Positions 10,573 through 57,079 of a stretch of DNA of 64,000 nucleotides are shown here, piece after piece. The position numbers and the translations under genes are program-made. The stretch is from Candidatus Gastranaerophilales bacterium (GTDB lineage Bacteria > Cyanobacteriota > Vampirovibrionia > Gastranaerophilales > Gastranaerophilaceae): positions 30,300-94,299 of the forward strand of contig CALURK010000004.1 of assembly GCA_944323165.1 (NCBI GenBank), written 5' to 3'. The number at the start of each line of letters is the position of its first letter. Position 1 is the first letter of the stretch. Under the pieces are notes generated by a model that did not search any database, was not told the origin of the DNA, and saw only the letters and a program-made list of their open reading frames with translations.

Positions 10573-11736
10573 ATGAACGAAATTATCCCGGTAAATACGA
10601 ATAATACTATAGTAGTTCCGCAAAAGAACAAAGTTCCGAGCTTTAGAGCGACTGCATTAACAGGTAATAATGATATTGATAGTTTTATAAAAGAGCGCGA
10701 AAAACAGCAAAAAAGTGCAAAACGCAAAGAATATATTTATTATGGATTTTTAGGAACTCTTGCTGCGACAGCTATTGGTAGCTTGTATTTTATGGCAAAG
10801 CAAGGGAAAGGTATGGGAAAAACAACAAATGAGTTGAAAGAGATTTGGTCGGACTTAACAAAATCTGCTAAAATTGATGATTTGGCACTTCCAGAGAGTC
10901 TAAGAAATTTCATGTCAAAATTTAAAAATAGTGTAAATAACCCTGAAGTTCTTAAAAATAGAGGTGGAAAACCAACAAAATCTGTTTTATTGTATGGTCC
11001 TCCGGGAACAGGTAAGACTACTTTTGCTAAAGCTTTAGCGAAGGAATTTCCTGATTCTAAGTTTGCGTCACTTGATGTAACAAGTTTGGGCTCAGAATTT
11101 CAGAGTGTCAGCGAACGTAATTTGAATAAAGCGGTTGATATGATTTGTAAAGAAGCAGATTCAAATCCTACTAAAAAATTCTTTGTGTTTATTGATGAGA
11201 TTGATTCAGTAATGATGGTAGATAATAGCTTAAATGCAAAGCAATCAAATGATATGTTGAATGAATTTAAAAAGTGTTTCACAGAAAAATTAGGTAAGCG
11301 TGATAACATTATAACGATTGGTGCAACTAACCTTCCTATAGATATCGAGAAAGGAGTTGTAATCGGCGGTAAGAAGTTAGACAGACCTATGTTAGACAGA
11401 TTCAGTGAAAAAGTTTTGGTAGATCTTCCAACAAAAGATCAAATTATAAATACTGTAAAATACCATTACAAGAATTCTTCAATGGTAAGTGATAAAATCA
11501 AATCTGGTTCTGAAGAATTGAATAAAATAGCAGAGTTTTTATCAAGACCAGAGCATAATACATCATTCAGAACATTGGATTCTATATATGATGCTACGGC
11601 CGCATCTATAAGTGGTACAGAAAAATATGTAGAAATTGCTGATATACTAAAAACAATAAAAGGAAAGCAGCATGAGATGAATTTTACGGATGCAGATTTT
11701 GCAAAATTACTTTCTGATTTGAAGATGACAATTTAA
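10573..11736 (+). CDS. Membrane-anchored AAA+ ATPase
   Basis: Walker A GPPGTGKT, Walker B FIDEID, SRH GATN...LDRF; one N-terminal TM helix. Confidence 0.9.
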   Translation: MNEIIPVNTNNTIVVPQKNKVPSFRATALTGNNDIDSFIKEREKQQKSAKRKEYIYYGFLGTLAATAIGSLYFMAKQGKGMGKTTNELKEIWSDLTKSAKIDDLALPESLRNFMSKFKNSVNNPEVLKNRGGKPTKSVLLYGPPGTGKTTFAKALAKEFPDSKFASLDVTSLGSEFQSVSERNLNKAVDMICKEADSNPTKKFFVFIDEIDSVMMVDNSLNAKQSNDMLNEFKKCFTEKLGKRDNIITIGATNLPIDIEKGVVIGGKKLDRPMLDRFSEKVLVDLPTKDQIINTVKYHYKNSSMVSDKIKSGSEELNKIAEFLSRPEHNTSFRTLDSIYDATAASISGTEKYVEIADILKTIKGKQHEMNFTDADFAKLLSDLKMTI

Positions 11737-11796
11737 AGAAATGTTACAAAAGAGCAATTTTTGTAAGAGAATGTTTTTTTATAATATAAAGGTTAG

Positions 11797-13107
11797 ATGC
11801 AGGGAAGATTTATGACAGCAGAAGTAAACAACAATATCAAGTTTAGAGCAAATAGTTTGACGATGGCAGCCCCGAGTGGTGTAAATTATAATAAAAGGTC
11901 AACCGCTCCAATGCCTCAGGAGATGCCGGCTGAAGATGTATTTATGTTACAGGCAATGGCAGAAAAGAAAGCTGAAAAGAAGGCTAATTCTCAAGCTAAT
12001 TGGAATAAAGCCGGTGTTTTGGCGCAGATAGGTATAGCTGTAGGTATGCTTCTTGGTGCTGTAGGAATGTTTTTTGGCACAAAGCTAATGGCAAAATCGG
12101 CAAGCGGAGCTTTAAAGGGTGAAAGTAAAAAACTTATGGATACTTTAAACCCTGTTGATGTAAGTAAGGAAAAGACTTTTGAACAGTTAACACTTTCTCC
12201 GGAAATGCAAAAAGTTGTTGCAGATATGAAAACTCGTATAGAAAGAGCTGATGCTTTGAAGAAAAAGGGTGGTTCCGGCGGCTCAGGTATTATGTTATAT
12301 GGAGAGCCGGGCGGCGGTAAGAATGCTTATGTTTATGCTTTAACAAAATATATGCAGAAGAAGTTTCCGGGTTCTGAGTTATATGAAATGAATGTTTTAA
12401 AACTTACAGACAAGTACGTTGGTGAAACTGAAAATAATATTATGGGATTTGTAGAGCAATTAACAGCAAAAGCTAAGGCTAACCCTGATAAGAAATTTAT
12501 AGTATTTATGGATGAATTTGATTCAATAGCAAGAAAAGAAGATGGTCTTGATAAAAAAATGGGCGAAAAATTCCAAAATGCTTTTAAACTTACACTAACA
12601 AAGCTTACCGCAATGGATAATGTTCAAGTAATTGCAGCAACAAATAAGGCTGAAAAAGATGCAGCTTTGAATAAAGTGTTAGATGAGGCAATTTTGAACA
12701 GATTCCCGCAAAAGATTTTTGTACCGCTTCCTACTAAAAAACAATTGAAGAAGGCTATAGTTGAGCATTATAAAACTCTGCCATCAGAAGTTGTTGATAA
12801 AGAGTTGACGGATATAAATAGTTCAAAATTAGACAGTATATGTAAAGATATTGCAAAAGAGTCACATCATGCTTCTTTCAGAGATTTACAATACATATTG
12901 GCAGAAGCTCGTATCATTTCAGAATCAGGTACCAGAAAAGAAGGTTCGCCAATTACAATAAAAGATTTGAAGGCAGCTGTAAAAAAACATGCTGAGCGAG
13001 AAAACTGGAGTGCAAAAAGCAAGGCAGTTAAGGATAAAGAGAATAATGGTTTTTCTTTTAATGACTTGTCATTTATGCAAAAACTATTATTGTTGTTTCA
13101 CAAGTAA
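11797..13107 (+). CDS. Membrane-anchored AAA+ ATPase, paralog with variant Walker A
   Basis: GEPGGGKN, FMDEFD, AATN...LNRF; N-terminal TM helix; likely start at 11812. Confidence 0.88.
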   Translation: MQGRFMTAEVNNNIKFRANSLTMAAPSGVNYNKRSTAPMPQEMPAEDVFMLQAMAEKKAEKKANSQANWNKAGVLAQIGIAVGMLLGAVGMFFGTKLMAKSASGALKGESKKLMDTLNPVDVSKEKTFEQLTLSPEMQKVVADMKTRIERADALKKKGGSGGSGIMLYGEPGGGKNAYVYALTKYMQKKFPGSELYEMNVLKLTDKYVGETENNIMGFVEQLTAKAKANPDKKFIVFMDEFDSIARKEDGLDKKMGEKFQNAFKLTLTKLTAMDNVQVIAATNKAEKDAALNKVLDEAILNRFPQKIFVPLPTKKQLKKAIVEHYKTLPSEVVDKELTDINSSKLDSICKDIAKESHHASFRDLQYILAEARIISESGTRKEGSPITIKDLKAAVKKHAERENWSAKSKAVKDKENNGFSFNDLSFMQKLLLLFHK

Positions 13108-13109
13108 AA

Positions 13110-14855
13110 TTAATGCTTTTTAATTTTATCAGCAAGTTTTTGACATCTTAGTTTTTCGATTTCTTCCATAACCTTACCGACAGGAATTTCCCAAGCGCCT
13201 GATGTCGGGCATTGGAAAGGTTTAATGCTCTTGTACCAGGCGATATCATCACCGTCAACCTTAAACCATCTCCATTCAACAATTCTGTTAAATAGTCCAA
13301 AAGTTTTTATACCCAAAGCTCCAGCAAGGTTCATAACACCGTTGTCGGTTGTAACCATCAAATCCATACAATTCATTGCACAAGCCGTATCTTCCCAATT
13401 CTTGAAAGTTTTTCCGAGCCTTATTAACTGAGCTTCTTGCGGGATTCTATCCATTTGTCGTGTTAAATCGTCAACTTGGAAACTGTATACTTCTACATCA
13501 GGTAATTCCATTAACGGATATAAGTAGCTTAGAGGGATATCTCTGTCGGTTTCTTTGCTTGCTAGGGTTCCTTCATAAGCTATACCGATTTTAATCTTGT
13601 CATTGTCATTAATATGTCCTTTTCTGAAAGCGTTAATTTTCGTTTTTGGAACTTTTAAGTAACCACCTGCTTTTGGTATAGTGCTAGGTTTAGTTTCACA
13701 AACAATCGGCAAGTCCATCATCGGTATCCAATAATCATAATTTATGTTTGGAATTTGATCTTCTGAATAAATTTCAACACCTAATTTTGAATCTTTAAAA
13801 AGTTCTATTAACGGTTTCTGAACTACTAAGGAAACTTCTTTGCACAATTTCTTTAGTTCATCCAAAAATCTTACGAACATGATTGAATCACCAAATCCTT
13901 GTTCAAAATGTACAAGGATACGCTTATCTTTTATGTTAACCTTAATATTCCATCTCTTCTTTTTCGACGTAAGCAGTTGTGGAAATGCTACGTTTTTCAA
14001 ATCTTCTTTTTGGAATCTGTGTTGCAGGAATTTAAATCCTTCAGAGAAACGTTTGTGTCTTACAAGGTATGCTCCGTATGCGTGTAAATCCGAGTGAGTT
14101 GGATTTAAGTACATTAGCTTAGAATAGAATTCGTCAGCTTTTTGTATCTCATCAAATTTTCCGTACACGTAAGCAAGGTTTTTAACAACAATTCTGTTGT
14201 TTGGTGCAAGTTCATAAGCTTTTGTAAGGTATCCGATTTGTTTATCCTTGTATTTGTCCTGATAACAGGTTGAATAAAGATGACCAAGCATATTGTATAT
14301 AGAAAAATTATTAGGATTTTTCTCAAGTGCTTTTTCGTAGTATTCAATTGCTTTTTTATTGTCTTTAATATCTGTATAAGTTAAATCTGCTAAGTATACG
14401 TATACATCTTCTTTGTCAGGAGAAATTTCTTCAAAACGTTTGAGGAATTTTATTGCTAAATCAGCATTTCCGATGGCTTTCATACATAAACCTATGTTTT
14501 TATAAATGTTTATTGGAAATCCTGAATATCGCATTATATTTCTATACTGTTCAATAGCTTCTATGTATTTTTTATCAAGATTTAATTTTTGCGCATAATT
14601 TATCGCCTGGTTAATATATTGGTTAATAGTGCTATTTCTTTCGGCTTCATCAGTAATAGAGGGTATTACTTCTCGATATATTTCCAAGCCTCTGTCATAG
14701 TTATTATTTTTACAATAATATTCAGCCATTGCGACATCCATAGACGTTATTAAATCTTTTGAATTGTCCATTGGAACTTCTTTTCTTACTATTAAACGTT
14801 TTGAAACTTGCATTTTTCCCTCTGAATTAGTTATGTGACTCTTATGTGTTATCAT
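13110..14855 (-). CDS. TPR-repeat protein with C-terminal GT9-like glycosyltransferase domain
   Basis: TPRs (AIEYYEKALEKNPNN...), EQGFGDSIMFVRF, DLMVTTDNGVMNLAGALG. Confidence 0.8.
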   Translation of the reverse strand: MITHKSHITNSEGKMQVSKRLIVRKEVPMDNSKDLITSMDVAMAEYYCKNNNYDRGLEIYREVIPSITDEAERNSTINQYINQAINYAQKLNLDKKYIEAIEQYRNIMRYSGFPINIYKNIGLCMKAIGNADLAIKFLKRFEEISPDKEDVYVYLADLTYTDIKDNKKAIEYYEKALEKNPNNFSIYNMLGHLYSTCYQDKYKDKQIGYLTKAYELAPNNRIVVKNLAYVYGKFDEIQKADEFYSKLMYLNPTHSDLHAYGAYLVRHKRFSEGFKFLQHRFQKEDLKNVAFPQLLTSKKKRWNIKVNIKDKRILVHFEQGFGDSIMFVRFLDELKKLCKEVSLVVQKPLIELFKDSKLGVEIYSEDQIPNINYDYWIPMMDLPIVCETKPSTIPKAGGYLKVPKTKINAFRKGHINDNDKIKIGIAYEGTLASKETDRDIPLSYLYPLMELPDVEVYSFQVDDLTRQMDRIPQEAQLIRLGKTFKNWEDTACAMNCMDLMVTTDNGVMNLAGALGIKTFGLFNRIVEWRWFKVDGDDIAWYKSIKPFQCPTSGAWEIPVGKVMEEIEKLRCQKLADKIKKH

Positions 14856-15054
14856 ACAATGCTTTTTGAGAGAATTAATCCTTCAAATAAATGGTTGTTA
14901 AAAGGATTTGGATTTATTGTTATGGAAAATTTCTTACCATATATGCTTCAGTTGTCCTAAAAAATATTTCCACCTCCCCCTTTACCCTTGTATATGTTTT
15001 TAATATAATGAACTTGCATAAGAGAGCGTTTTTTTATAAAGAAAGGAAAAGCTT

Positions 15055-16356: not shown

Positions 16357-16802
16357 TTTTTTATGCCCAAAATACTTTATATAAATAAGGTTAGAAAAAT
16401 AAGGTAGGTTTATTATGGAAAAAATTGGTTACAATCCGTATTTTTACAGTTATCCTCAGTATTTATCAAATAATTTGGGTAGTGTGGGTACAACTAATAT
16501 TTCTCCAAACTTTCGAGGCAATGGGGTTGGAGTAGCTAACCCGTCAGTAAATTATACAACCCCACCTGATACTGTTGAAATTTCAGCAGGCAACAAAATA
16601 AATGAAGCGAGCAATCTGGAAAAAAAGACAGGAATGTCTACGGGAGCAAAAATCGGACTAGGGATTTTAGGTACGGCAGCAGCTGCTTATGGTTGTGTTG
16701 TTGGTCATAGAATGATTAATAAACCAAGTCTTGAAAAAGTTGCAAAAAATTTCTCCGAAATCTTTAGACGTGATGTATCAAAAGACGAAGCTCAAAAAAT
16801 GG
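16357..16802 (+). repeat. Duplicated segment, copy 1 (upstream region plus first ~130 codons)
   Basis: Near-identical to 17871-18322, which has a 6-nt in-frame insertion. Confidence 0.9.
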
Positions 16803-17458
16803 CAAATAGGTATAAAGAGATTTTTAAATTAAAAGATGATAAAGATTTTAGAAAAGAATTATTTAAGCAAATTAAGAAAGATTATGGGTTAGAGAATACT
16901 TGCTATGATTTATCTATAAAAAAACTAAAAAAGGGTGAAAATGGTCACTTTACACCATTTGGAGAATGTAAGCTAGTTAATGATGTTGACGGTCCGAGTT
17001 TTTATTTTAATTCTAAGGGCAGTGTTGCCGTTGATGAAAATTGGGCAAAATCAAGAGAACTTTTTTTTAATACTATAATTCATGAATTAAATCATGCTAA
17101 ACAATTTGAAATTGCATATAGAACAAATTCCAAGGATGCATTAAATGCTTATATAGGGAACATAAAAGATGAGTTACCTTTTATTAATAAGTTAGAGCAA
17201 AAAAGCTACGATATTATTGCTGAATTAAAAAAAACAATGAAAGAATTTTTGGGAACTACGCCAGCAAATAGCTTAAATAAAGGTTCAAAAGATTATGAAT
17301 TAGGACTAAAATATATTGAAAATCAAAAGAATTATATTAATCCTTCTAAAGATCCTATTAAATATCAGAAACAATTTGTAGAAAAAGAATCTTTTAATGT
17401 TCAAAATTTGATGGATAATAGTCTTAATTATTTCTTGTCTCCTTGGCGAATATTTTAG
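16415..17458 (+). CDS. Putative zincin metalloprotease-like protein (HExxH), paralog 1
   Basis: IIHELNHAKQ, TM helix AKIGLGILGTAAAAYGCVVG, distal EKE as candidate third ligand. Confidence 0.75.
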   Translation: MEKIGYNPYFYSYPQYLSNNLGSVGTTNISPNFRGNGVGVANPSVNYTTPPDTVEISAGNKINEASNLEKKTGMSTGAKIGLGILGTAAAAYGCVVGHRMINKPSLEKVAKNFSEIFRRDVSKDEAQKMANRYKEIFKLKDDKDFRKELFKQIKKDYGLENTCYDLSIKKLKKGENGHFTPFGECKLVNDVDGPSFYFNSKGSVAVDENWAKSRELFFNTIIHELNHAKQFEIAYRTNSKDALNAYIGNIKDELPFINKLEQKSYDIIAELKKTMKEFLGTTPANSLNKGSKDYELGLKYIENQKNYINPSKDPIKYQKQFVEKESFNVQNLMDNSLNYFLSPWRIF

Positions 17459-17599
17459 GAGCAAAGCAGGGATAGAATGCTTCTATTAATTGGGCATACT
17501 TGTCTAATAAAATAACCTTAGTTGATTAGGGTGTAATTTTGTACCGATTTGAGAACAATTAATTTAAAAAATTTTAACTACTTATTTTGCCATTTGACT

Positions 17600-17625
17600 A
17601 GATTCCGAAATAAATTCGGAATGAC
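17600..17625. repeat. REP-like 26-bp palindromic element
   Basis: AGATTCCGAAATAAATTCGGAATGAC; identical at 17788 and reverse-complemented at 25538. Confidence 0.85.
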
Positions 17626-17676
17626 ATTAAGTTTATGTAGAATATGTCCTGCTGATTTTTCATCACCTTTATCACA

Positions 17677-17775
17677 TTCCCCGCCCCTTGAAGGAGGGAA
17701 TGTATAAAGCTTGTGTCATGCTGAACTTGTTTCAGCATCTACCTTCCCCCTCCTTGAGGTAGGTGGCTAGGGGGT
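17677..17775. repeat. REP-like cluster: two C/G-rich hairpin elements flanking a variant 26-bp element (17715-17740)
   Basis: TTCCCCGCCCCTTGAAGGAGGGAA; GTCATGCTGAACTTGTTTCAGCATCT; CTTCCCCCTCCTTGAGGTAGGTGGCTAGGGGG. Confidence 0.7.
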
Positions 17776-17787
17776 GGAGTGAAAAAT

Positions 17788-17813
17788 AGATTCCGAAATA
17801 AATTCGGAATGAC
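17788..17813. repeat. REP-like 26-bp palindromic element
   Basis: Identical to 17600-17625. Confidence 0.85.
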
Positions 17814-17870
17814 AAAAAGAAAAATTGTTTGAATTTTAATAAAAATTTACAATATTAAGGTTTTAAGCAA

Positions 17871-18322
17871 TTTTTTATGCCCAAAATACTTTATATAAAT
17901 AAGGTTAGAAAAATAAGGTAGGTTTATTATGGAAAAAATTGGTTACAATCCGTATTTTTATAGTTATCCCCAATATTCATTAAATAATTTGGGTAGTGTG
18001 GGTACAACTAATATTTCTCCAAACTTTCGAGGTAGTGGGGTTGGACTAGCTAGTCCTCAAACGTCAGTAAATTATACAATACCACCTGATACTGTTGAAA
18101 TTTCTGCCGGAAATAAAATAAATGAAGCGAGTAATCAAGAAAAAAAGACAGGAATGTCTACGGAAGCAAAAATCGGACTAGGGATTTTAGGTACGGCTGC
18201 GGCAGCGTACGGTTGTGTTGTTGGTCATAGAATGATTAATAAACCAAGTCTTGAAAAAGTTGCTAAAAATTTCTCCGAAATCTTTAGGCGTGATGTATCA
18301 AAAGACGAAGCTCAAAAAATGG
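17871..18322 (+). repeat. Duplicated segment, copy 2
   Basis: Near-identical to 16357-16802. Confidence 0.9.
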
Positions 18323-19104
18323 TAAATAATTATAAAGAACTTTTGGAAATAAAAGATACTGAAGAATTCTGTAAAAAAGCATTTGAACAAGTAAAAAAAG
18401 ATTATGGATATGAAAATATACCAATAAAGTTAAATCTGGAATATTTGCCTGATAAAGGTTTCAAAACAATGATATCTAATAAAGTTGGGGCCTCTTGGCG
18501 TGATACCGAAGGAACAGTGTCGTTACACATTCCAGATGTAAAAAATGGAGCTCCTCTTGCGAAATATAGTAAATCAGAGATGATAAAAAATTTGATTCAT
18601 GAATTTCAACATGCCAAACAAACTGAGTATGCTTGTCGAACTTCTTTGCCAAAATACGTAGAAGCGATAAAGAAGAACTGTTCATATGATCTAGAAAAAG
18701 AGCTTAAACGAATTGACTATATACTTAAAAACGAATATGATCTAAAAAAATATGCAGAAAAAAATAAATTCTCTATACAAGAAGCAAAAGAAAAATTGAA
18801 AAACATGAAAGAATTATTTATAAAGCATAAAGATGAAATTAGTAAAATAAAAAAAGAAGTAACAAATACAAAATGTGACGAACGCGTGTTAAATGAATTA
18901 TTTGGCAAATATGAAAAATTTGCTCCTAATTCAAAAGAATATGCTCTTGGATTAAAATATATAGAAAATGCTTCGAATTACATCAGTGGCAAAGTAGATA
19001 AAAAAAGATATTATGAACAAATATTAGAAAAAGAAGCTCATCAAACAGGTAAAAACTTTAATCAGATTTACAACTACTTTGCAAATCCTTGGCGGTTGTT
19101 TTAA
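17929..19104 (+). CDS. Putative zincin metalloprotease-like protein (HExxH), paralog 2
   Basis: LIHEFQHAKQ; N-terminus shared with the 16415 paralog; C-terminal LGLKYIEN...EKE...PWRLF. Confidence 0.75.
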   Translation: MEKIGYNPYFYSYPQYSLNNLGSVGTTNISPNFRGSGVGLASPQTSVNYTIPPDTVEISAGNKINEASNQEKKTGMSTEAKIGLGILGTAAAAYGCVVGHRMINKPSLEKVAKNFSEIFRRDVSKDEAQKMVNNYKELLEIKDTEEFCKKAFEQVKKDYGYENIPIKLNLEYLPDKGFKTMISNKVGASWRDTEGTVSLHIPDVKNGAPLAKYSKSEMIKNLIHEFQHAKQTEYACRTSLPKYVEAIKKNCSYDLEKELKRIDYILKNEYDLKKYAEKNKFSIQEAKEKLKNMKELFIKHKDEISKIKKEVTNTKCDERVLNELFGKYEKFAPNSKEYALGLKYIENASNYISGKVDKKRYYEQILEKEAHQTGKNFNQIYNYFANPWRLF

Positions 19105-19107
19105 TTA

Positions 19108-27154: not shown

Positions 27155-28465
27155 TTATTGACCGAGATATGCAAGTGTTTCCATTACACTGCTTGCCGTT
27201 GAAAATACTCTCGAATTCATTTGAATCATTCTTTGAGCGGTAATCATATTGGTAAGCTCTGTTGCAATATCTACGTTAGAACCTTCATATCCGCCGGATT
27301 CAATTGAACCGAAGGAAACTTCGCCTGCCATACCGTAGTAAACGTCGCCTACGTTAGCACCCCATTCCCAGAGGTTGTTGTTGATGGATACGAGACCTTC
27401 TTCGTTAACCATTGTGGCAAGTTCAATTACGAAGTTAGAATTTTCAATTGTAGCACCGCTTGCTGTAACATCATCGCCGCGGATAGTTACACCTTCAGGA
27501 GTTGTGTATTTCCAGTGTACGGTATATGTATCATCCACATATTGAGTTAAAATCGAACCGTCGCTGTATGTAGCAGCCATAATACCATTTTCATCAACAG
27601 TTGTGGATTTTAGAGTTATAGAAGTGTTGTAGTTTACCATTTCTTGAAGTGATACGACCTGATTAATAACATCAGAAGTATTATTTGTACTGCTTAATCC
27701 TGTTTCACCAAGGAAGTTACTTGTTGTACCCGGTTCATTGAATGTAATATCACCTGTGTAAGTAATTCTTCCGTCTCCGGTTACCGAAAATGTTACATCA
27801 TTAATACCGGCGTCTTGTAATTGCTGGTTGAATGCATTAAGAATTTCATTAATGGTAGGGTCGCCTTCTTCAATGGTTAATAAAACATCAGTATCACCTA
27901 CAGTAGCAGATATGTCGCCTGCTTTGATAGCTGCGTTATTAAGCTGGCTTGTTTTTTTGTTGCCGAGATTCGGATCCCCTTGTACTGTTGCACTTAGGTT
28001 TTTAGGCACTTGAACAGTTTTTCCTGAGCTTGCATTTGAATATGGAGAATCTGCGGCAACAACTTTCATACCTGACTGTGTTACAACATTCCCCTCTGAG
28101 TCTGTTGTGAATACGCCATCACGTGTGTAGTATAGCTTGCCTTCAGAATCTTGAACTACAAAGAAGCCGTTTCCGGAAATCATAAGGTCCATGTCTTTTC
28201 CCGTGCTTACAAAGTCACCGGAATTAAAGTTTCTTGTAATACCTCCAATTTTTACACCGAGACCGATTTGTCTTGGGTTTGTACCGCCTCCGTCTGTGGT
28301 TGCTGCGCTTCCGTATGACAGGGTATTTGAATACAGAGTTTCAAATGTCATGTTTGCAGCTTTAAATGCTGTCGTATTGATGTTTGCAACGTTGTTTGCA
28401 ATAACATTAATTTGCTGCTGACCGGCGTTAATACCGGTACTGGCTGTGTGTAGAGCTTGTGTCAT
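27155..28465 (-). CDS. flgE: Flagellar hook protein
   Basis: N-terminal IANNVANINTTAFK, YTRDG, C-terminal EGSNVDIATELTNMITAQR; 436 aa; follows flgD. Confidence 0.9.
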   Translation of the reverse strand: MTQALHTASTGINAGQQQINVIANNVANINTTAFKAANMTFETLYSNTLSYGSAATTDGGGTNPRQIGLGVKIGGITRNFNSGDFVSTGKDMDLMISGNGFFVVQDSEGKLYYTRDGVFTTDSEGNVVTQSGMKVVAADSPYSNASSGKTVQVPKNLSATVQGDPNLGNKKTSQLNNAAIKAGDISATVGDTDVLLTIEEGDPTINEILNAFNQQLQDAGINDVTFSVTGDGRITYTGDITFNEPGTTSNFLGETGLSSTNNTSDVINQVVSLQEMVNYNTSITLKSTTVDENGIMAATYSDGSILTQYVDDTYTVHWKYTTPEGVTIRGDDVTASGATIENSNFVIELATMVNEEGLVSINNNLWEWGANVGDVYYGMAGEVSFGSIESGGYEGSNVDIATELTNMITAQRMIQMNSRVFSTASSVMETLAYLGQ

Positions 28466-28487
28466 TGTTTCCTCCCGTTTGTACTAT

Positions 28488-29084
28488 TTATGCTTTTGAT
28501 TTTGTCGTGCCGGATTGTGTAGTTGCGGCAGTGTTCGTTGTTGTTTTTGTATTTGAGTCTGTTTCTGTGCTGGAAGAAGTGTCCTCGGATACACTTTCTC
28601 CCGGCTCTCTGATTGATGTAATATATGCGATTGAATAGTATTCGCCGTTAACTTTAATCTTACCTGTTCCGTCTTTGAAGTTTGCTTCAGTTACGGTTCC
28701 TGAAACTTCAGTATATTTAGTACTGTCTTTTTCATCAGGAATCTGAAGAGTAACCTCTTTACCTATCATAGAAAGTGTTTGAGAAATTTCAGAATTGTAT
28801 GCCATATCGGCGTACATTGCAGAAATGTATTCAACACAGTTTTCTAAGCCTTCATTCATCTGAGTCATCTGTTCAAGTGATGAATATTGTGCCAATTGAG
28901 CAAGCCATTCCGTGTTATCTGTAGGCTGCGTCGGATCCTGATTCTGGAGCTGCTGGAGCATAAGAGTCAAAAACATATTCGGATCTGACGTGTCGGTAGA
29001 TGTTGTTCTGTTTTTCATCTCTTCTGCTTTTTGCATAGCAGTCATATTTTGCATTGATGTGATTTCTGATGTTATTACACTCAT
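28488..29084 (-). CDS. flgD: Flagellar hook capping protein
   Basis: FLTLMLQQLQNQDPTQP...LAQLAQYSSLEQM. Confidence 0.92.
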   Translation of the reverse strand: MSVITSEITSMQNMTAMQKAEEMKNRTTSTDTSDPNMFLTLMLQQLQNQDPTQPTDNTEWLAQLAQYSSLEQMTQMNEGLENCVEYISAMYADMAYNSEISQTLSMIGKEVTLQIPDEKDSTKYTEVSGTVTEANFKDGTGKIKVNGEYYSIAYITSIREPGESVSEDTSSSTETDSNTKTTTNTAATTQSGTTKSKA

Positions 29085-29102
29085 AATTTACTCTCCACCC
29101 TT

Positions 29103-30434
29103 TTATACCTTACCATTTTCGTTTTCTATAAAGGACATCATCCTGTCGAACTGTTCTTTGTCTCTTTGTTCTCTTTGAGGATTCTGTTCTTTATTACCGC
29201 CTCTGGAGCCTTCCTGCTCTGTCCAGTCGGTGTTGTACTCACTTTCCTGAGTATCGTTAAGTTTTACAGTGACATTATCTACACTTACCCCGTGTGACAC
29301 TAATGTGTCTTTCAAGCCGTCAAGCCCCTTCATTATTAAATTTCTTGCATCCTGTGTTGCAACAGTAAACTGGGCTGACAAACCCTCTTTTGTATTAATC
29401 AATTGTATTGAAACTTTGCCGAGAGATTCCGGATTCAGAACAATATTTAGTTTAGAACCGTTTTGCATTCCCTCCATCTGCTTTGTTATCTGTTCAATAA
29501 TCTTGCTTGGCGTAATCTCTACAGATGCGGTCTTACTGTTTGCCGTTTGAGTATTTTGAGTCTGCATTGCCGGTTTCATTTCCGTCGTAAAATCCGCATC
29601 TGCTTGAAGCATAGCTTTTACACCCTGCTCTTCCGGTGACTGGTTCTGCATCAAATCCGAATCACCGGCGCTGCTGCTGTCAGAACTTTCTGCGTCAAGA
29701 GATTCAATGTTTAATTCCTTTAATTGATCTTCGTTTATAATATCTTCTAATGCTTCTGTTGAACTTTTGCCGGACTCATTTGTTACCTTCGTAGTTTCTG
29801 TAGTTGTTTGAACATCTGCAGCGGTTTCAAATTCTTCCAGAAAACTGTCAAGATTTTTATTAAAAACCAAGTTTTCTTCCGCTGTTTCAGTGTTTACCGT
29901 TTCAACCTCTTTTAAATCCGTTCCGTCGGTTTGTTCGGTTTGGTTAGTTTTTTCATCAGTTTCCTTTTTTTTCTCTTCATCATCATCTTCTTCAAGGTGA
30001 AGCAGTTTTTTTGCTATTTCTTTTGCATCCAAATCTTCCGTAACCTCAGTAGAATCCTCAGTTTCAGCAGCTTCTGCCGCATTAACGGATGCAATTTCAC
30101 TGTTTTCTTCCGAATCAGATGATGCACCATCCTCATCTGCAGCCCGTTTTAAAAATTCGATTAATTGCTTGATATCATAAATAACGCTTCCTGCAAATGT
30201 CTCATTTTCAGCGACTGATTTTAAAGTTTTGCCATTTCCTTCATCTTTATCTTGAATATTTTCTTCCTTATTGGCAGAACCAATATCCGTTGACTTATCG
30301 TTTTCAAAGCTTGTTTTCTGCTTATCAAATAATTTCTGAAAATCTGTTTGAGTAAATGTATCATTGCCTAATTTTGAGACGGATGATAAATTATTGCTAA
30401 TACTGTTTAAATTGTTTAATAAATTTTGAACCAT
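29103..30434 (-). CDS. fliK: Flagellar hook-length control protein
   Basis: Acidic disordered region plus C-terminal LNPESLGKVSIQL...AQFTV domain. Confidence 0.88.
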   Translation of the reverse strand: MVQNLLNNLNSISNNLSSVSKLGNDTFTQTDFQKLFDKQKTSFENDKSTDIGSANKEENIQDKDEGNGKTLKSVAENETFAGSVIYDIKQLIEFLKRAADEDGASSDSEENSEIASVNAAEAAETEDSTEVTEDLDAKEIAKKLLHLEEDDDEEKKKETDEKTNQTEQTDGTDLKEVETVNTETAEENLVFNKNLDSFLEEFETAADVQTTTETTKVTNESGKSSTEALEDIINEDQLKELNIESLDAESSDSSSAGDSDLMQNQSPEEQGVKAMLQADADFTTEMKPAMQTQNTQTANSKTASVEITPSKIIEQITKQMEGMQNGSKLNIVLNPESLGKVSIQLINTKEGLSAQFTVATQDARNLIMKGLDGLKDTLVSHGVSVDNVTVKLNDTQESEYNTDWTEQEGSRGGNKEQNPQREQRDKEQFDRMMSFIENENGKV

Positions 30435-30435
30435 T

Positions 30436-30879
30436 CTAACCTATCTTAAATCTTGCTGATGTAATGTCATCTATTTCTTTCATTTCAAGGTGTAAGAATT
30501 CTTGATAATATTGTTTCTCTTGTTTTTCTTTTAATTTTTTTAAAACTTCAACCTTTTGATGAGCTTCTTTTACCTCTTGTTGTTTTCTTGCAAGTATTGC
30601 TTTTGTGTTTGCAATTATTCTTTCCTGATTTTTTGCATCTTGAGCAAGTTTTATTCCAAAAGTCCGATATTCTTCCAACCTAAATATCTCAAGATTTTCT
30701 GAAATAGAAAGTTCCTCTTGCAGTCTGGTATTTTCTTCCTGACGATTTAAGATAGCTTGAAGCTTTCCTTGCTGTTCATTGAGAGCAGTTAAAATTCTGG
30801 ACATTTCCATCTGTCGCTGTTCTAACTCTTTTTCTCTCATGTCAAGCACGACCTGAAGCCGAAACTTGAATTTCTTCAA
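30436..30879 (-). CDS. fliJ: Flagellar export protein FliJ
   Basis: KFKFRLQVVLDMRE...LKKLKEKQ...EMKEIDD; TTG start with GAGGTAGG RBS. Confidence 0.88.
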   Translation of the reverse strand: MKKFKFRLQVVLDMREKELEQRQMEMSRILTALNEQQGKLQAILNRQEENTRLQEELSISENLEIFRLEEYRTFGIKLAQDAKNQERIIANTKAILARKQQEVKEAHQKVEVLKKLKEKQEKQYYQEFLHLEMKEIDDITSARFKIG

Positions 30880-32871: not shown

Positions 32872-33309
32872 ATGGGAATTATGGCTAACATAGTTTGTAA
32901 AACAGCGGGTGTCGCAGGCATGAGTGCCGTTCTTTATGATGCTTATTCTTTGGGAAAGGCTAATTCAAAAAGGGTTTCCGAGGATGCAGAGGCGGATAGG
33001 TTTATAAAAATTCACGCTGAAACCAGAACTTTGTCGACTGAAAGTCCTATAAAAAATGCAATGCAAAAAAGGGTTGCTAAGTGGAGAGCTGATATGCCAT
33101 TTATGTCTACACTGTACAGCATCAAAGGGTTTACAGGAGGTCTTCTGGATTCTCTTGCAGACAACATCGTCCCTGCAGCCTGTGCTTCAATAGCTTTAGC
33201 TGCGAAAGGAACTTTTGCAAAAATTGGTGCCATAGGGCTTGCAGGATATGGAGTTTATCAAGTTGCAAAGGAAGGTTTTGGATTTACCAAAAAAACTCCC
33301 ATGAGTTAG
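32872..33309 (+). CDS. Hypothetical small membrane protein
   Basis: RBS AAGGA; Gly/Ala-rich hydrophobic segments. Confidence 0.7.
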   Translation: MGIMANIVCKTAGVAGMSAVLYDAYSLGKANSKRVSEDAEADRFIKIHAETRTLSTESPIKNAMQKRVAKWRADMPFMSTLYSIKGFTGGLLDSLADNIVPAACASIALAAKGTFAKIGAIGLAGYGVYQVAKEGFGFTKKTPMS

Positions 33310-47463: not shown

Positions 47464-49968
47464 TTATTCTTCTTTTGGAGGTTCTTCCTTATTTTCGTCT
47501 TCTTTCGGAGTTCCCTCTTTACGTTCAAAGATGATCTTATCATCTTGAAGTTTTAGTACAATTGTATCTCCAGGCTTATAAGCATTTGTCAAAATCTCTT
47601 CGGCAAGAGGATCTTCAATTTTCTTTTGAATTAATCTTCTAAGAGGTCTTGCACCATAAGCTTCGTTGTATCCGTCTTTTGCAAGATAATCTTTAACTTC
47701 ATCTGTTACTTCAATAGAAAGTTCTCTTTCTGAAAGACGCTTGAATAAATCCTTCATCATTAAATCAACGATTTGTCGGATTTCTTCTTTGCTCAAGTGA
47801 GAGAATACGATTATATCGTCAATACGGTTCAAGAATTCAGGTCTGAAGGCTTTTTTCAATTCTTCATTAACTGTTTCTTTTAACTTTTCGTATTTATCCT
47901 TCTTAGCATCTTCCGCTGTTGAGAAGCCTAGCTTACCTTGAGTTGTAATCATGCTTGCGCCGACATTTGAAGTCATAATGATTACGGTATTTTTAAAGTT
48001 GATATGTCTGCCTTTCGCATCAGTAAGACGTCCGTCATCCAGAATTTGAAGCATTATGTTAAACACATCAGGGTGAGCCTTTTCTATTTCATCGAAAAGA
48101 ATTACAGAATAAGGTTTCTTCCTTACAAGTTCCGAAAGATGTCCGCCATCATCATAACCTACATATCCAGGAGGTGAACCGATAAGTTTTGCGGTAGAAT
48201 GTTTTTCCATAAATTCTGACATATCCACTCTTATCATGTTATCTTCACTTCCGAAGATAGCTTCTGCAAGAGCTTTAGCTAATTCTGTTTTACCGACACC
48301 TGTAGGACCTGAGAAGATAAAGCTTCCGATTGGTCTATTTGGTGATTTTAAACCAACTCTTGCACGTCTTATAGCTTTTGATATTGCAGTAACGGCTTCT
48401 GATTGACCGATAACCCTGTTATGAAGAGTTTCTTCCAACTTAAGAAGTCTTTCGGACTCGCCTTCTGTTAGTTTTGTAACCGGAACGCCAGTCATTGTTG
48501 CAATAACTTCCGCAACATCTTCTTCTGTTACTGTTGGTTTGTTTGCATCGTTTTGTCTGCGCCATTCCTCAGTTACTTCACGAATTCTATCTTTCATATT
48601 TGCTTCATCATCTCTTAATGCTGAAGCCCTTTCAAATTCCTGATTTCTTATGGCTTCTTCTTTTTCCTTAACAATTTCTCTTAATTCTTTATCAAGTTCT
48701 TTGCCTTCAGGAGAAAGAGTGCAAACCTTTAATCTTACTTTAGAGCTGGCCTCGTCAATTACATCGATAGCTTTATCCGGCAAAAATCTGTCATTTATAT
48801 ATTTGCTGGACAATTTTGTAGCCGCAACAATTGCCTCATCCGAAATATGAAGGTTATGGTGCTCTTCGTATTTCGGTTTTAAACCTCTTATAATTTCTAT
48901 TGTTTCATCAATAGAAGGTTCTTCGATTATTACAGGTTGAAATCTTCTTTCAAGGGCTGAATCTTTTTCAATGTATTTGCGGTATTCATCGGAAGTTGTA
49001 GCACCGATTACTTGAATTTCACCTCTGGAAAGTGCTGGTTTCAAAATGTTTGCAGCATCAATTGCACCTTCTGCAGCGCCAGCGCCGATTAAAGTGTGCA
49101 TTTCATCGATTACAAGAATTACATTACCTGCTTGGCGAATTTCGTCCATAATCTTTTTAAGACGTTCTTCAAATTCACCACGATACTTTGTTCCTGCGAT
49201 TAAAAGCCCCATATCAAGTTGTATAATCTTCTTATTTTCCAAAATATCAGGAACTTCATTATTAACTATTCTAATTGCTAAACCTTCAGCCACAGCTGTT
49301 TTACCAACACCTGGTTCACCTAATAAAACAGGGTTATTTTTGGTTCTTCTTGCAAGAATTTGAATAACACGTTCAATTTCTTTTTCTCTGCCGACAACAG
49401 GATCAAGTCTTTGTTCTGCTGCTGCTTGAGTTAGGTCTGTTCCAAATTCATCCAAGCTAGGAGTTTTAACTTTGCTTGCCTGTGATGAACCAGAAGAGGA
49501 TGATCCGACACCGGCACCTGTTGTTTGAGGTTTAGAATCACCAAGCATTTTTACAACATTGCTTCTGACTTTGTTTAAGTCGACACCAAGATTCTCTAGA
49601 ACCCTTGCTGCAACACCTTCACCTTCTCTTATAAGTCCAAGAAGCAAGTGTTCAGTTCCGATATAGTTGTGGCCAAGTTGTCTTGCTTCATCCCAAGATA
49701 ATTCCAAAACTCTTTTTGCTCTTGGCGTAAATGGTATTTCTACAGCAACAAAGCCGGAACCTCTTCCTATAATTTTTTCAACTTCTATTCTCGCATCTTT
49801 GAGGGTAACCCCCATTGACTTAAGAGTTTTAGCAGCAATACCGGTACCTTCTCCGATTAAGCCCAAAAGTACCTGTTCTGTGCCGACAAAATTGTGTCCC
49901 AAGCGTCTGGCTTCTTCCTGAGCCAGCATTATTACTTTTATTGCCTTTTCAGTAAAACGTTCGAACAT
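47464..49968 (-). CDS. clpC: ATP-dependent Clp protease ATP-binding subunit ClpC
   Basis: Clp N-domain, Walker A GEPGVGKT and [11 protein letters not shown] domain. Confidence 0.97.
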
Positions 49969-52203: not shown

Positions 52204-53229
52204 TTGTTTTACATGATGTATGTAAGTGAAAGAAAGGAAGTGTGTATGAACCCAGTTGGAATGAATGTAAATGGTTATGTGAACTATAGTGTTGCAAAGA
52301 ATCAATTAAGAGATAATACTCAAACCGTGTCATCCGGCAATACTGATACGCTTCAGGCTCCTGCATTTAAAGGGGGAGTTAAAGTGAATAGTAAAAATGG
52401 TTTAAAAGTTTTATTTGCTTCAGTTGCAGGAGCTTTAGGTATCGGAGTTGCTACGAAAAAGGTTCATGAAACTATAAATAAAGAACCTGTTGTTGGGGAA
52501 AATGTGAAACCAAAAGATGCAGAAATCTTATTAAATCAATTGAAAGATAAAAACGGTGGAATTGAAAGTATACAACGTGATGTTGATGTAAGAGAAAATT
52601 ATGATATTACGGAAGTCCGATTTAAAGACGGAAATTCTCTACTTTTCCAAGACATTGATACAGAAGAAAATACTTTGAAAAAATTGCAAAATAGTGCTTT
52701 AGGTTATAATAAATCCGGATTATTCAAAACTTATAGAGATAATTTACAATATTTGTATGGCAAACAAATGGATGATATTTCGACAGTTATAGAACAGCCA
52801 AAAGAACAGGTTGTTATAGATAAGGCTGATTTTACAACTAAACCTTCTGATAAGGATAATTTTTATAATCCATATTTAAATTATTCAAGGCAAGATGTTG
52901 CTAAAAAACTGCGTTATGGCGAGAATTCTATGTTCCAAAACAAATCAGTATTAGATAGAATTAAATATTCAATAGAATACAAGTTAGGTAATGAAAATCC
53001 AGAACCTGCTGATATAAGAGCTTTGAAGTTGAATGGATATGGAAAAGAAAATAATGCTTACGTCTATTATGACAAAAAGACTAACTTGTCTACAATATTT
53101 GACAGCTATGGTTCTCCAGTAGCGCAAGTAGCGTTCAATACTAATTATCAGAATCGAGGGGATGAAATACCTTCTGACTACAAACTTTACTCCTTTTACG
53201 CGAATGATAAATTTAGACAATTTAAATAA
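52204..53229 (+). CDS. Hypothetical protein with AFKG motif and TM helix
   Basis: Likely start at 52246 (RBS AAGGAAG); VLFASVAGALGIGVA. Confidence 0.75.
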   Translation: MFYMMYVSERKEVCMNPVGMNVNGYVNYSVAKNQLRDNTQTVSSGNTDTLQAPAFKGGVKVNSKNGLKVLFASVAGALGIGVATKKVHETINKEPVVGENVKPKDAEILLNQLKDKNGGIESIQRDVDVRENYDITEVRFKDGNSLLFQDIDTEENTLKKLQNSALGYNKSGLFKTYRDNLQYLYGKQMDDISTVIEQPKEQVVIDKADFTTKPSDKDNFYNPYLNYSRQDVAKKLRYGENSMFQNKSVLDRIKYSIEYKLGNENPEPADIRALKLNGYGKENNAYVYYDKKTNLSTIFDSYGSPVAQVAFNTNYQNRGDEIPSDYKLYSFYANDKFRQFK

Positions 53230-53233
53230 AAAT

Positions 53234-53270
53234 AAAAAAAGACCTGCTATATTAGCAGGTCTTTTTTTTT
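53234..53270. terminator. Bidirectional terminator
   Basis: AAAAAAAGACCTGCT-ATATT-AGCAGGTCTTTTTTTTT. Confidence 0.9.
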
Positions 53271-55743: not shown

Positions 55744-55864
55744 TTTTATTTCCTCTCTACAATTTCCCTATATGTAAATTATACAATTAAAAAATATGAT
55801 AGCAATTTTTTTATTTTTGAGTTTTAATAATAATCAAAAAGTAAAAGTGTGGGGTGTATAATTT

Positions 55865-57079
55865 ATGATAAACAAAATCAATAGTCTTTCAGGTGTTCAG
55901 GGACAATACAAAGTTAATTTCAGATCAAATGAGCCTGTCACTAACCCGAATCAAAATGAAATAAAGCAGGATGTAAGTTTGGCTGGAACGGAAGCTTTGG
56001 CGGTTTATAATGCTCCTTTGTTAAAGCATCCTGAAAAGCTAGATGTCGAGCCGATTAAACCTGCTGAAATTAATTTTTCGGATTTAGATTCTATTGAAGG
56101 TGAAAAAATATACACTTCAGAGGGAAAATTGCATTCAATTTTTAATGAAGACGAAAATAATAGAACTTTGATAAAAAGATCTGAGGATAATGAAAATTTG
56201 TACTCTATAACTACTACCGATAAAAAGTCTGGCAATGTTATAAAAGAGGAACTTAGATTCTTAAAAGACGGTAAGGATGACGAAATATATATTACAGAGT
56301 ATTCTCCTGAAACAAAAAAAGAAGTTGCTGATACAAATTATATTGACGGCGTGCTCAGCAGTGCATCTAAAACTGTTACTAAGCCAAATGGTGATGTTGT
56401 AGTTGTTAGGAAAAGCTTTAAGTACAATGATTATAGCGTAACAAAGTATTCCGATAAGCACGATAAATACATAAGTGTTAGTTTTGACAAAAATAAACAG
56501 CTTAAACAAATAAGCAAAGAAAAAGAAGAAAAATTAAAACGACAAAGCTTTGAAATAAGTTTTTATAATGGCGGAATGATTTCTGTTGATAAGCACGAAG
56601 AAATTACTATTCCTAATAATTTTGGTGTAGAAAAGTTAAATGACATAAATTTAGTTCCATCAGAAAAATACAATCTGGATTTTGATGCAAAAGGTTTAGA
56701 TGGAGAGAAAACATATTTTTCTAATGGTGCAATTGAAACTAATTCCTTTGAGAGAAATGGTGAAAAAATAAAAGCTTATTTTGATCCTGACGGAAGATTG
56801 GCAAAGCTTGAACTTTCTAATAAGGTTATCAAATTTAGCGATGACGCCCAAAAGGTGCAAGAAAAACTTGATGATGGTAAAACAAAAACCACAACTTTGT
56901 ACGATGATGGTGATAAAAACGTAAGATTTGAGGACGGTAATGTCTATAAGGAAGTTCGTTTTAGCAAATTTGGAAAACCTACTTCATACCACGAAGGTGT
57001 AATCAATTCTGACTGCGAAGATGAAAATGATTTAGCACTATACTTCAATAAACTGGGAATGTTGGAGTTTACATACTAA
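55865..57079 (+). CDS. Hypothetical protein with MORN/YwqK-like beta repeats
   Basis: YTSEGKL, YFSNGAI, YFDPDGRL, FSKFGKP; N-terminal VNFRS motif. Confidence 0.7.
   Translation: MINKINSLSGVQGQYKVNFRSNEPVTNPNQNEIKQDVSLAGTEALAVYNAPLLKHPEKLDVEPIKPAEINFSDLDSIEGEKIYTSEGKLHSIFNEDENNRTLIKRSEDNENLYSITTTDKKSGNVIKEELRFLKDGKDDEIYITEYSPETKKEVADTNYIDGVLSSASKTVTKPNGDVVVVRKSFKYNDYSVTKYSDKHDKYISVSFDKNKQLKQISKEKEEKLKRQSFEISFYNGGMISVDKHEEITIPNNFGVEKLNDINLVPSEKYNLDFDAKGLDGEKTYFSNGAIETNSFERNGEKIKAYFDPDGRLAKLELSNKVIKFSDDAQKVQEKLDDGKTKTTTLYDDGDKNVRFEDGNVYKEVRFSKFGKPTSYHEGVINSDCEDENDLALYFNKLGMLEFTY

Follow-up and report, generated by a model that had tools for sequence, protein, structure and literature searches.

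Within a 64,000-nucleotide stretch of DNA from a Candidatus Gastranaerophilales bacterium (positions 30,300 to 94,299 of contig CALURK010000004.1; we refer to this whole stretch as the window), seven proteins that lack a signal peptide carry the short motif F[RK][GAS] near their N-termini. We tentatively propose, with a confidence somewhat short of even, that Candidatus Gastranaerophilales have an N-terminal targeting leader of their own, specific to the lineage, and that this motif forms its conserved core. The original prediction made from this DNA was that the motif marks a set of signal-peptide-less orphans and is a candidate export or targeting signal, and its general claim is borne out, in that a conserved, disordered N-terminal element is common to unrelated proteins without signal peptides, behaves like a recognition or targeting signal, and extends well beyond the window. 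The anatomy of the leader, its conservation, its disorder, its spread over unrelated families and its link to a late first membrane helix are all direct observations. The Gastranaerophilales are uncultured, non-photosynthetic relatives of the cyanobacteria that frequently inhabit the guts of herbivores and of people in non-industrialised populations, and a large fraction of their genes are unannotated. The window has a GC content of 33%, exact matches to its proteins lie on a metagenome contig of 139.9 kb (ENA ERZ24773227 NODE_203), and the relatives of its proteins come from metagenome-assembled genomes of Candidatus Gastranaerophilales, Melainabacteria and 'Vampirovibrio sp.' from the human gut and the rumen. 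We found no description of such a motif in Gastranaerophilales in the literature.

All seven strong instances of F[RK][GAS] were read from the open reading frames (ORFs) of the window where the original prediction had placed them, it being noted that for minus-strand genes it gave the low coordinate, where the gene has its 3' end. Start codons were reassigned in three of the seven carriers from ribosome-binding sites, the N-termini of orthologues and public gene calls. Specifically, the start of ORF 11797 moves to 11812 (M6 of the long ORF), that of ORF 52204 moves to 52246 (MNPVG), and that of ORF 33306 is probably the ATG at 33674. With these corrections, the Phe of the motif lies between residues 11 and 41. 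The carriers, followed by one weak instance and one protein used for comparison, are as follows.

10573 to 11736, plus strand: AAA1, an AAA+ ATPase of the Cdc48/VAT D1 type; VPSFRA with Phe at residue 24 (FRA at nt 10642-10650) in a leader of residues 1-53; the motif is followed by a conserved NDIDSFIKE and a basic stretch, then by a hydrophobic helix at nt 10732-10800
11812 to 13107, plus strand: AAA2, an AAA+ ATPase and paralogue of AAA1 (32% identical); IKFRA with Phe at residue 11 (FRA at nt 11842-11850); strong membrane helix at nt 12016-12084
16415 to 17458, plus strand: zincin-like (HExxH) protein; SPNFRG with Phe at residue 33 (FRG at nt 16511-16519); PPDTVEIS at nt 16568-16585; membrane helix at nt 16640-16717
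17929 to 19104, plus strand: tandem paralogue of 16415 with the same leader; SPNFRG with Phe at residue 33 (FRG at nt 18025-18033)
33306 to 33674, minus strand: small membrane protein of 122 amino acids with two hydrophobic helices, beginning MIQPVNALAPKVFFKG; VFFKG with Phe probably at residue 14 (FKG at nt 33627-33635)
52246 to 53229, plus strand: orphan of 327 amino acids beginning MNPVGMN; APAFKG with Phe at residue 41 (nt 52366-52374); membrane helix directly after it at nt 52399-52455
55865 to 57079, plus strand: core gene adjoining pheT, beginning MINKIN; VNFRS with Phe at residue 19 (nt 55919-55927); residues 1-49 disordered; no membrane helix
50238 to 51053, minus strand: weak instance, rejected as a member; the ORF starts at 51053 with MTNNFGAK
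27155 to 28465, minus strand: FlgE hook protein, for comparison only; AFKA at residues 33-36 (F34; FKAA codons at nt 28355-28366), the known GF[KR] of Flg_bb_rod

The weak NNFGA at 50238 does not survive as an instance of the motif, as a near-identical strain has E at the position of the G (NNFEA), and the exact protein is known from a single short contig. FlgE is a bona fide flagellar export substrate that stands outside the new set. The description of the carriers as orphans applies to five of the seven, which have no Pfam or NCBIfam family, and has to be given up for AAA1 and AAA2, which are classical-clade AAA+ ATPases according to their Pfam AAA (PF00004) scores of 79.1 bits and 74.0 bits, respectively, against a cut-off of 21.2. 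The top matches of AAA1 in the PDB are the D1 domains of Cdc48, VAT and p97 (E about 1e-30), and it is a core gene that is syntenic with aspS in other species. The C-terminal zincin-like domain of 16415 folds confidently, and a fold search of the PDB returned no match to it. In 55865, the first motif is followed by a second, degenerate copy, VSLAG, and by a helix with the sequence EALAVYN, and the remainder of the protein consists of all-beta hairpin repeats. This second block, VSLAG-TEALAVYN, reads VSFKG-TEALAAYN in distant homologues and resembles a degenerate repeat of the first motif. A fold identity for the C-terminal part of 55865 was sought and rejected, since the matches to Rhs, teneurin and OspA were only local ones to beta-hairpin repeats, with TM-scores <0.2. 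The gene at 33306 sits between two flagellar clusters, on the strand opposite to the downstream cluster.

The leaders share an anatomy across families. The extreme N-terminus consists of small hydrophobic residues and is alike from family to family, following M-x-[IV]-[NQ]-[PK]-[IV] (MINKIN, MNEINPI, MNPVGMN, MIQPVNA, MKINPIQ and MRVNPIQ). Next comes a spacer of 5-35 residues with few acidic residues and an abundance of N, Q, S, T, P, Y and G, and then the core, [KR/polar]-P-x-F-[KR]-[GAS], in which the Phe is nearly invariant. A second short block is often present after the core, and over half of the carriers have a membrane helix, rich in Gly and Ala and moderately hydrophobic, 15-45 residues past the core. 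The original prediction had described a D-T/S/V-V/F element after the motif as a shared feature; only two independent paralogue pairs lie behind it, and the second blocks prove to be family-specific, namely PPDTVEISA in the zincin-like family, where it is well kept, D[IV]D.FIK in AAA1 and DDVFMMQ in AAA2. PPDTVEISA (16568-16585) is the best-conserved block of the zincin-like tail and is presumably similar to a TonB box of the D-T-x-V-V-T-A type. A similar sequence, EQDTVSFGQDK, occurs in an apparently unrelated protein of 206 amino acids just outside the window (L068:17803-18423; L numbers denote the loci sampled), and a TonB gene is found in the lineage at L042:12724.

Conservation of the core is strongest in two unrelated families. 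F[RK][GAS] is retained in AAA1 in 119 of the 119 homologues listed (73-100% identical), in the form [KVI]-[PIV]-[NS]-F-[RK]-[AS], and in the 55865 family the Phe is retained in 50 of the 50 homologues that have a full leader, at identities down to about 30%, with the exact regular expression matched by 29 of them. Indeed, F19 of 55865 is among the nearly invariant columns of the alignment and is the best-kept residue of the first 40. In the 52204 family, which has three representatives in total among 1.8 billion proteins, SQAP[AS]FKG is retained at 46-50% identity while other leader residues change, and orthologues of AAA2 carry TINFKA and NTGFKA. The core is therefore a conserved island inside otherwise divergent tails in AAA1, AAA2, 52204 and 55865. 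The zincin-like family (91 homologues) is less strict, with the exact motif in 44 of 68 full leaders, a variant that keeps the F in 13 of 68, occasional replacement of the F by Y, and one subclade that has lost the motif. The third position of the motif varies among G, A, S, N and T. The codons of the motif vary between families (TTT or TTC; AGA, CGA, CGT, AGG, AAA or AAG; GCN, GGN or TCA), from which it follows that selection acts on the protein. An artefact at the level of RNA or of Shine-Dalgarno sequences, or of mis-called starts, was ruled out on the same ground and because ribosome-binding sites precede the leader starts. A non-coding leader was likewise ruled out, as its 50-75 codons are open in dozens of homologues of a genome with 33% GC, in which a non-coding frame would by our own estimate hit a stop about every 13 codons. 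It should be noted that the public gene calls for the zincin-like homologues P0020, P0021, P0054, P0064, P0067, P0076, P0078 and P0083 begin at a Met before the membrane helix (MSTGAK…). Gene callers have here cut the leader off, and leader-bearing genes are probably under-called in public annotation.

The leader is also predicted to be unfolded. In AlphaFold2 models built on family alignments, the pLDDT is <50 for residues 1-74 of 16415 and for residues 1-49 of 55865, these being the two tails modelled, and confidently folded domains follow in both. For the analyses across families we used 782 kb of Gastranaerophilales DNA, comprising the window and loci obtained by genome, metagenome and contig look-ups, in which ORFs were called by a crude longest-ORF heuristic and collapsed to 409 families. 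A composite pattern, in which a polar, acid-poor and non-hydrophobic leader is combined with the motif, occurs in 15 of the 409 real N-termini and in 0 of 1127 internal pseudo-N-termini, a contrast whose p-value is optimistic as the criteria were chosen after viewing the data. A late first membrane helix, 40-110 residues into the protein, is present in 9 of 16 carrier families compared with 19 of 341 others (odds ratio 22, p=2e-7), and the other 7 of the 16 have no hydrophobic segment. The hydrophobic helix that the original prediction had seen after the motif is present in six of the seven window carriers, 55865 having none; that of 10573 was identified from its sequence and its orthologues and falls below the Kyte-Doolittle cut-offs applied to the other helices. 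The carrier helices are moderately hydrophobic, with Kyte-Doolittle values of 1.5-2.1.

The bare tripeptide, stripped of its setting, is less telling. When the first 60 residues of each protein were shuffled, the seven window families with F[RK][GAS] compared with an expectation of 2.8 +/- 1.6 (p=0.018), and among the 409 families 37 had the motif at residues 8-60, compared with 23.0 +/- 4.6 expected (p=0.0015), or 34 compared with 22.9 when the query families were excluded (p=0.016). The odds ratio for positions 8-45 versus the remainder of the proteins is 2.2 (p=2e-4). The positional enrichment over background on which the original prediction depended is thus present, and for the bare regular expression it is modest. 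About 60% of the matches to the regular expression are expected to be chance noise, such as those in a DUF4186 protein at 5144 and in the ClpB fragment at 61948, and in an unbiased scan of 3-mers in a reduced alphabet the motif was not in the first rank. One reading of these figures is that the motif has no common function at all and is a frequent tripeptide of an AT-rich proteome rich in N, K and F, multiplied by paralogy and by gene conversion at 5' ends. About 23 of the 37 family-level matches are expected from composition, the motif does not come first in the unbiased scan, two pairs of paralogues make up four of the seven instances in the window, and 16415 and 17929 have 5' modules with almost the same DNA sequence. 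However, an absence of function does not agree with the retention of the F, encoded by differing codons and surrounded by flanks that diverge, in 52204, in AAA2 and in every one of the 119 and 50 homologues that represent two unrelated families, nor with the empty internal controls of the composite pattern, nor with the link to a late helix. We disfavour this explanation and rank it as the least likely of those considered.

The leader is found on about 15 additional unrelated families of Gastranaerophilales, which brings the total to about 20. Variant cores of the forms F-G-A, F-Q-G/H and F-T-G occur in more distant lineages. The families include the following.

L009:1807-4935, plus strand: double AAA protein of 1042 residues with QKPSFKA and no predicted membrane helix; its N-terminal part is ankyrin-like by eye only
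L009:4948: membrane protein of 702 residues with MQPNFKA
L015:7802-8692, minus strand: MTP18-domain (mitochondrial fission process) membrane protein, 33.7 bits
L015:8842: protein of 544 residues with YNPQFKG
L034:18933 and L034:19510: two proteins of about 190 residues with TINFRA and HLGFRA and no predicted membrane helix, one of them weakly GNAT-like
L022:4375: protein with the motif DCYLMTT and no family match, for which a cysteine protease is a guess
L025:7714, L032:5112 and L042:15249: small membrane proteins
L026:7768-9732, plus strand: GH77 4-alpha-glucanotransferase (amylomaltase) with a 65-residue N-terminal extension that contains a variant motif

Several of these carriers have eukaryote-flavoured or cytoplasm-type domains (MTP18, GH77 and the double AAA protein). 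A comparison of synteny across the loci of the zincin-like family recovered no orthologues of other carriers.

Based on these data we put forward a hypothetical mechanism in which the role that we infer for the leader is one of targeting, and in which its receptor is likewise deduced. The leader would be recognised in its unfolded state at the N-terminus, its Phe docking into a hydrophobic pocket of a common membrane-associated receptor. Proteins as diverse as anchored AAA ATPases, zincin-like proteins, small membrane proteins and proteins without a helix would in this way be brought to one route of export or insertion, and the leader would be read before insertion or export takes place, such that one receptor serves helix-bearing and helix-less carriers. 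Recognition of an unfolded N-terminus is suggested by the strict N-terminal position of the motif, the kept tip, the near-invariant Phe and the occurrence on unrelated carriers without classical signal peptides. Moreover, the conservation of the extreme N-terminus is more readily reconciled with a receptor that recognises the terminus itself than with one that recognises an internal motif. Nested within this targeting mechanism, and with low confidence, we name a flagellar-type export gate, specifically the C-terminal domain of FlhB, as the leading candidate receptor, because, of the exporters known in the lineage, the gate is the sole one to read N-terminal signals that have no hydrophobic core. 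The leader looks like an undescribed address label of a known broad kind, that of N-terminal sorting and recognition signals.

The conserved island in a disordered tail is at the same time the classical signature of a short linear motif, and the leader could instead act at steady state, with the tail docking on a common hub, by strand addition or by insertion into a pocket, so as to co-localise the carriers. The hub might be a polar or cytoskeletal scaffold, a tetratricopeptide repeat (TPR) protein such as that encoded at 13110-14855, or a periplasmic TonB-like domain. Such docking would account for the cytoplasm-type enzymes among the carriers, a TPR protein shares synteny with the two AAA genes in two species and a shorter one is encoded nearby in a third, and the second blocks are family-specific, with PPDTVEISA presumably resembling a TonB box in a lineage that has a TonB gene. 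On the other hand, docking leaves the place of the motif, about 10-55 residues from Met1, and the conserved N-terminal tip unexplained, and the tails would have to meet one hub from different compartments. AAA1 and AAA2 each have a single helix and an AAA domain that must be cytoplasmic, since it needs ATP, so that their tails would lie on the far side of the membrane, and the tails of helix-less carriers would be cytoplasmic unless the whole protein is exported. One hub could therefore not serve all of the carriers, and one receptor could do so only if the leader is read before insertion or export. This compartment argument would favour transient targeting over steady-state docking, and we regard docking as possible yet doubtful. 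A distant member of the zincin-like family, P0070, carries a classical hydrophobic signal segment at the site of the leader, which would predict a cytoplasmic C-terminal domain and an exported tail for this family.

A Phe followed by a basic residue also has the appearance of an N-degron of the ClpS type (the bacterial N-end rule), which raises the alternative that the motif is a site of processing or turnover. The site would be that of a dedicated protease or a masked N-degron, in which a cut before the Phe exposes F-[RK] for ClpS and thereby for ClpC/ClpP. ClpC is encoded in the window (47464-49968), and conservation is poor in the part of the leader before the motif, as would befit a pro-peptide destined for removal. 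The extreme N-terminus is nevertheless conserved, which is unexpected in a part that is to be discarded, no protease is linked to the carriers, and the variable third position together with the P at position -2 fits no cleavage site known to us. We consider processing or turnover very unlikely.

The original prediction had seen in the motif a chaperone-binding or cleavage site for a flagellum-derived type III pathway, and the window is indeed rich in flagellar genes. These include flgB, flgC and fliE (40905-42379, minus strand), a cluster of flgE, flgD, fliK and fliJ (27155-30879, minus strand), and a second fliJ with a fliK-like gene and a flgF/G-like set (33852-36389, plus strand). Duplicates are seen among them, with two FliJ-like genes (30436-30879 and 33852-34337), two FliK/Flg_hook-like genes (29103-30434 and 34337-35560), and a second FlgE/F/G-D1 protein (35553-36389) that accompanies FlgE. 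The window also encodes a canonical type IV pilin, ClpC, a ClpB fragment and ordinary housekeeping genes. Complete flagellar sets are reported for about 25% of Gastranaerophilales genomes, the remainder keeping flhB, fliI and flgG, for which a role in secretion has been postulated (preprint 10.64898/2026.04.24.720558). In early flagellar subunits the export signal has two parts, small hydrophobic N-terminal residues and a gate-recognition motif whose Phe enters a pocket in the C-terminal domain of FlhB; at F45 of FlgB aromatic residues alone function, and in Salmonella the separation of the tip from the motif must be >=19 residues, with an optimum of 24 (PMC8983047, PMC9307174).

We therefore weighed the possibility, itself nested within the targeting mechanism, that the carriers are flagellar or flagellum-derived type III substrates that leave through FlhAB-FliPQR, the tip and Phe acting as a two-part signal or the leader as a chaperone-binding strand. 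The logic of the leader is that of the early flagellar subunits, a hydrophobic tip and a critical conserved Phe for which Y is an occasional substitute (in the zincin-like family), the leaders are disordered in both AlphaFold2 models, flagellar genes are plentiful in the window, and members of the lineage with incomplete flagella are reported to retain genes for flagellar export all the same (preprint 10.64898/2026.04.24.720558). The moderate hydrophobicity of the carrier helices is also in keeping with type III export. Helices of this kind also occur in membrane proteins secreted by type III systems. Type III effectors of Pseudomonas syringae follow empirical composition rules: position 3 or 4 is taken by an aliphatic residue or Pro, acidic residues are missing from the first 12 positions, and the first 50 are rich in polar residues. 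I, L, V or P is found at position 3 or 4 in 16 of 21 leaders versus 191 of 371 other proteins, and in combination with no acidic residue at positions 1-12 in 12 of 21 versus 84 of 371, a comparison that is partly circular in that leaders were recognised by their polar, acid-poor composition. Against this stands the fact that type III signals are normally not a sequence motif, and that AAA1, AAA2 and 55865 belong to the core genome, evolve slowly and keep housekeeping neighbours (aspS, pheT). The leader, moreover, is on 4-12% of the genes in the sampled loci, a frequency that is rough given that related loci were retrieved with motif-bearing queries and that the gene calling was crude, and this is far beyond any known flagellar secretome. 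Export of the carriers as type III substrates is in our judgement unlikely.

Several further observations weigh against the mechanism proposed here, in part or as a whole. The FxxxΦ pattern of the flagellar gate-recognition motif is missing. A large hydrophobic residue is present at F+4 in 8 of 24 leaders (a hand tally, unscripted), which we judge to be background level, and the 55865 family has E or P at this position; the leader was accordingly rejected as a FxxxΦ gate-recognition motif. At least nine families have their Phe at residues 10-16, compared with the separation of >=19 that applies in Salmonella. In the window the Phe is far enough from the N-terminus in 16415 and 17929 (F33), 52246 (F41) and 10573 (F24) and too near to it in AAA2 (F10-11), 33306 (F14) and 55865 (F19), although the required spacing may differ in this lineage. 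A membrane helix is present in 9 of 16 carrier families, and we know of no lateral exit from the flagellar gate. The sigma-28 consensus TAAAGTTT-N11-GCCGATAA, though sharply defined in the lineage, is upstream of none of the seven motif genes, which is weak evidence in that early substrates need not depend on sigma-28. A scan of nine leaders with Flg_bb_rod (PF00460) gave no match at E up to 10, while FlgE scored 32 bits in the same scan. Mimicry of the GF[KR] of Flg_bb_rod was rejected too, as look-alikes such as INNTGFKAAA, compared with INTTAFKAAN in FlgE, are supported neither by Pfam nor by the leader flank profile, on which the flanks of FlgE score -2.7. The export-gate genes flhA, flhB, fliI and fliPQR are absent from the window and from the 10 kb on either side of it. 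The basic charge is similar on both flanks of the helices, so the positive-inside rule fixes no topology. Carrier enzymes of cytoplasmic type (AAA+, GNAT-like and GH77) would make no sense outside the cell. Lastly, the enrichment of the bare tripeptide is only about 1.5-2.5x, and the flanks of the leaders are weakly alike across families (p=0.004 for N-terminal versus internal instances on a leave-one-out flank profile).

The shared leader would give a first handle on a whole class of orphans in this lineage, and with it a set of co-sorted proteins that can be tested. If the receptor is the flagellar gate, this would explain the flagellar export genes that non-flagellated members retain. The most far-reaching version of the proposal is that the leader is an undescribed general sorting signal on several percent of proteins, read by a retained flagellum-derived gate that exports or inserts non-flagellar proteins, including N-terminally anchored ones. 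We think this distinctly improbable; if true, the flagellar export apparatus would have been repurposed as a housekeeping route of secretion and insertion. If the motif merely serves docking, it would still mark a protein network that is specific to the lineage.

Some features of the neighbouring genes should also be recorded. Divergent from the AAA pair in every species examined is an orphan of 335 amino acids (MGLACSNIRLLTLTARKADCE…; 9407-10414, minus strand). It has a perfect promoter of the sigma-28 type, TAAAGTTT-N11-GCCGATAA (10449-10475, minus strand), as do its orthologues in L034 and L036, and its C-terminus is weakly similar to the GAxxNR motif at the C-terminus of flagellin (BLASTP E=0.037). 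Judged by these sequence features, the orphan may belong to the late (axial) proteins of the flagellum and have escaped recognition as such. A near-consensus sigma-28 promoter (TAAAGTTT…GTCGATGA; 37364-37390) also precedes the gene at 37447-37689 (plus strand), which encodes an 80-amino-acid protein made up mostly of repeats rich in NPF and GG (…SSNPFAQRGGNPFVTSNPFVNYG…). The tandem zincin-like genes (16370-19104) are mosaics whose DNA is 85-100% identical from about -45 nt to about codon 140, spanning the leader, helix and juxtamembrane block, and about 50% identical thereafter. They lie between pgk and bioY, and there is nothing at that place in the related species L036. This absence together with the mosaic identity argues that the pair is an accessory insertion in which either the 5' parts have undergone gene conversion or the C-terminal parts have diversified. 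We also considered that the leader had been shuffled onto a new C-terminal domain in the P0048 group, and rejected this, as P0048 is a divergent paralogue that keeps HELKHAKQ. Residues counted by eye in the alignment give an identity of about 88% for its leader and of about 26% for the remainder, and for paralogues of the P0048 type this pattern, the same as that of the tandem pair, points to mosaicism or gene conversion as far as can be judged from the alignments. Elsewhere in the window, a tmRNA with the tag ATDNVVVADFSRAAARRAA is located at 4737-5137 (plus strand), the mechanically called ORF that overlaps it (4699-4992, minus strand) being spurious, and tRNA-Glu(CTC) is at 58052-58126 (minus strand). 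A HEAT-like repeat protein (31904-32854, plus strand) has an N/P/Y-rich leader (…PNYSGVTIQIANPSVYAGGNPNN…) without the F[RK][GAS] core, and a small EF-hand protein (58885-59442, plus strand) is conserved in the lineage.

How the leader relates to known N-terminal signals can be assessed from both its likenesses and its differences. Curated models of sorting signals in Pfam and NCBIfam (Flg_bb_rod, ESPR, YSIRK, Tat and others) gave no match to the leaders. The Tat signal (S/T-R-R-x-F-L-K) and the class III type IV prepilin signal (G|FTLIE) resemble the leader in having an N-terminal Phe with basic or small residues. However, the leader has no RR, its single basic residue comes after the Phe in an order that is the reverse of that in Tat, and polar residues follow its [GAS] in place of the hydrophobic stretch that directly follows in prepilins. 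Indeed, the true pilin of the window (44720-45385) has a canonical KNGFTLAEV that is unlike the leader. The leaders obey the Pseudomonas syringae effector rules more often than do other proteins in the same loci, but effector signals have no fixed motif, and we know of no injectisome in Gastranaerophilales. For AAA1 and AAA2 alone there is a likeness to N-anchored AAA ATPases (Msp1/ATAD1 and Bcs1) in the short tail, the moderately hydrophobic and basic-flanked helix and the classical AAA domain, although AAA1 and AAA2 are bacterial and have a longer tail with a conserved leader, and the relatedness is apparent at the AAA domain.

Two known systems come closer. With the two-part signal of early flagellar subunits, the leader shares a disordered N-terminus, a small hydrophobic tip and a single best-kept Phe some tens of residues in, for which Tyr is the sole substitute in a few cases. 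It differs in that it lacks FxxxΦ and has K/R and a small residue after the Phe, in that its spacing is often 5-12 residues rather than 19 or more, and in that its carriers are not axial, mostly bear a helix and form a set far larger than the flagellar secretome. With the extended Sec signals, that is, ESPR (the extended signal peptide region of type V secretion proteins), YSIRK-G/S and KxYKxGKxW, the leader shares its nature as a lineage-restricted short N-terminal motif that is found on unrelated proteins upstream of a hydrophobic segment. Those motifs abut the h-region and a cleavage site, whereas in the leader 10-45 polar or charged residues lie in between, and 7 of 16 families have no hydrophobic segment. 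By analogy, the leader would thus be nearest to the early flagellar signal in its logic and to the extended-signal-peptide motifs in its genomic behaviour, while departing from the defining features of both.

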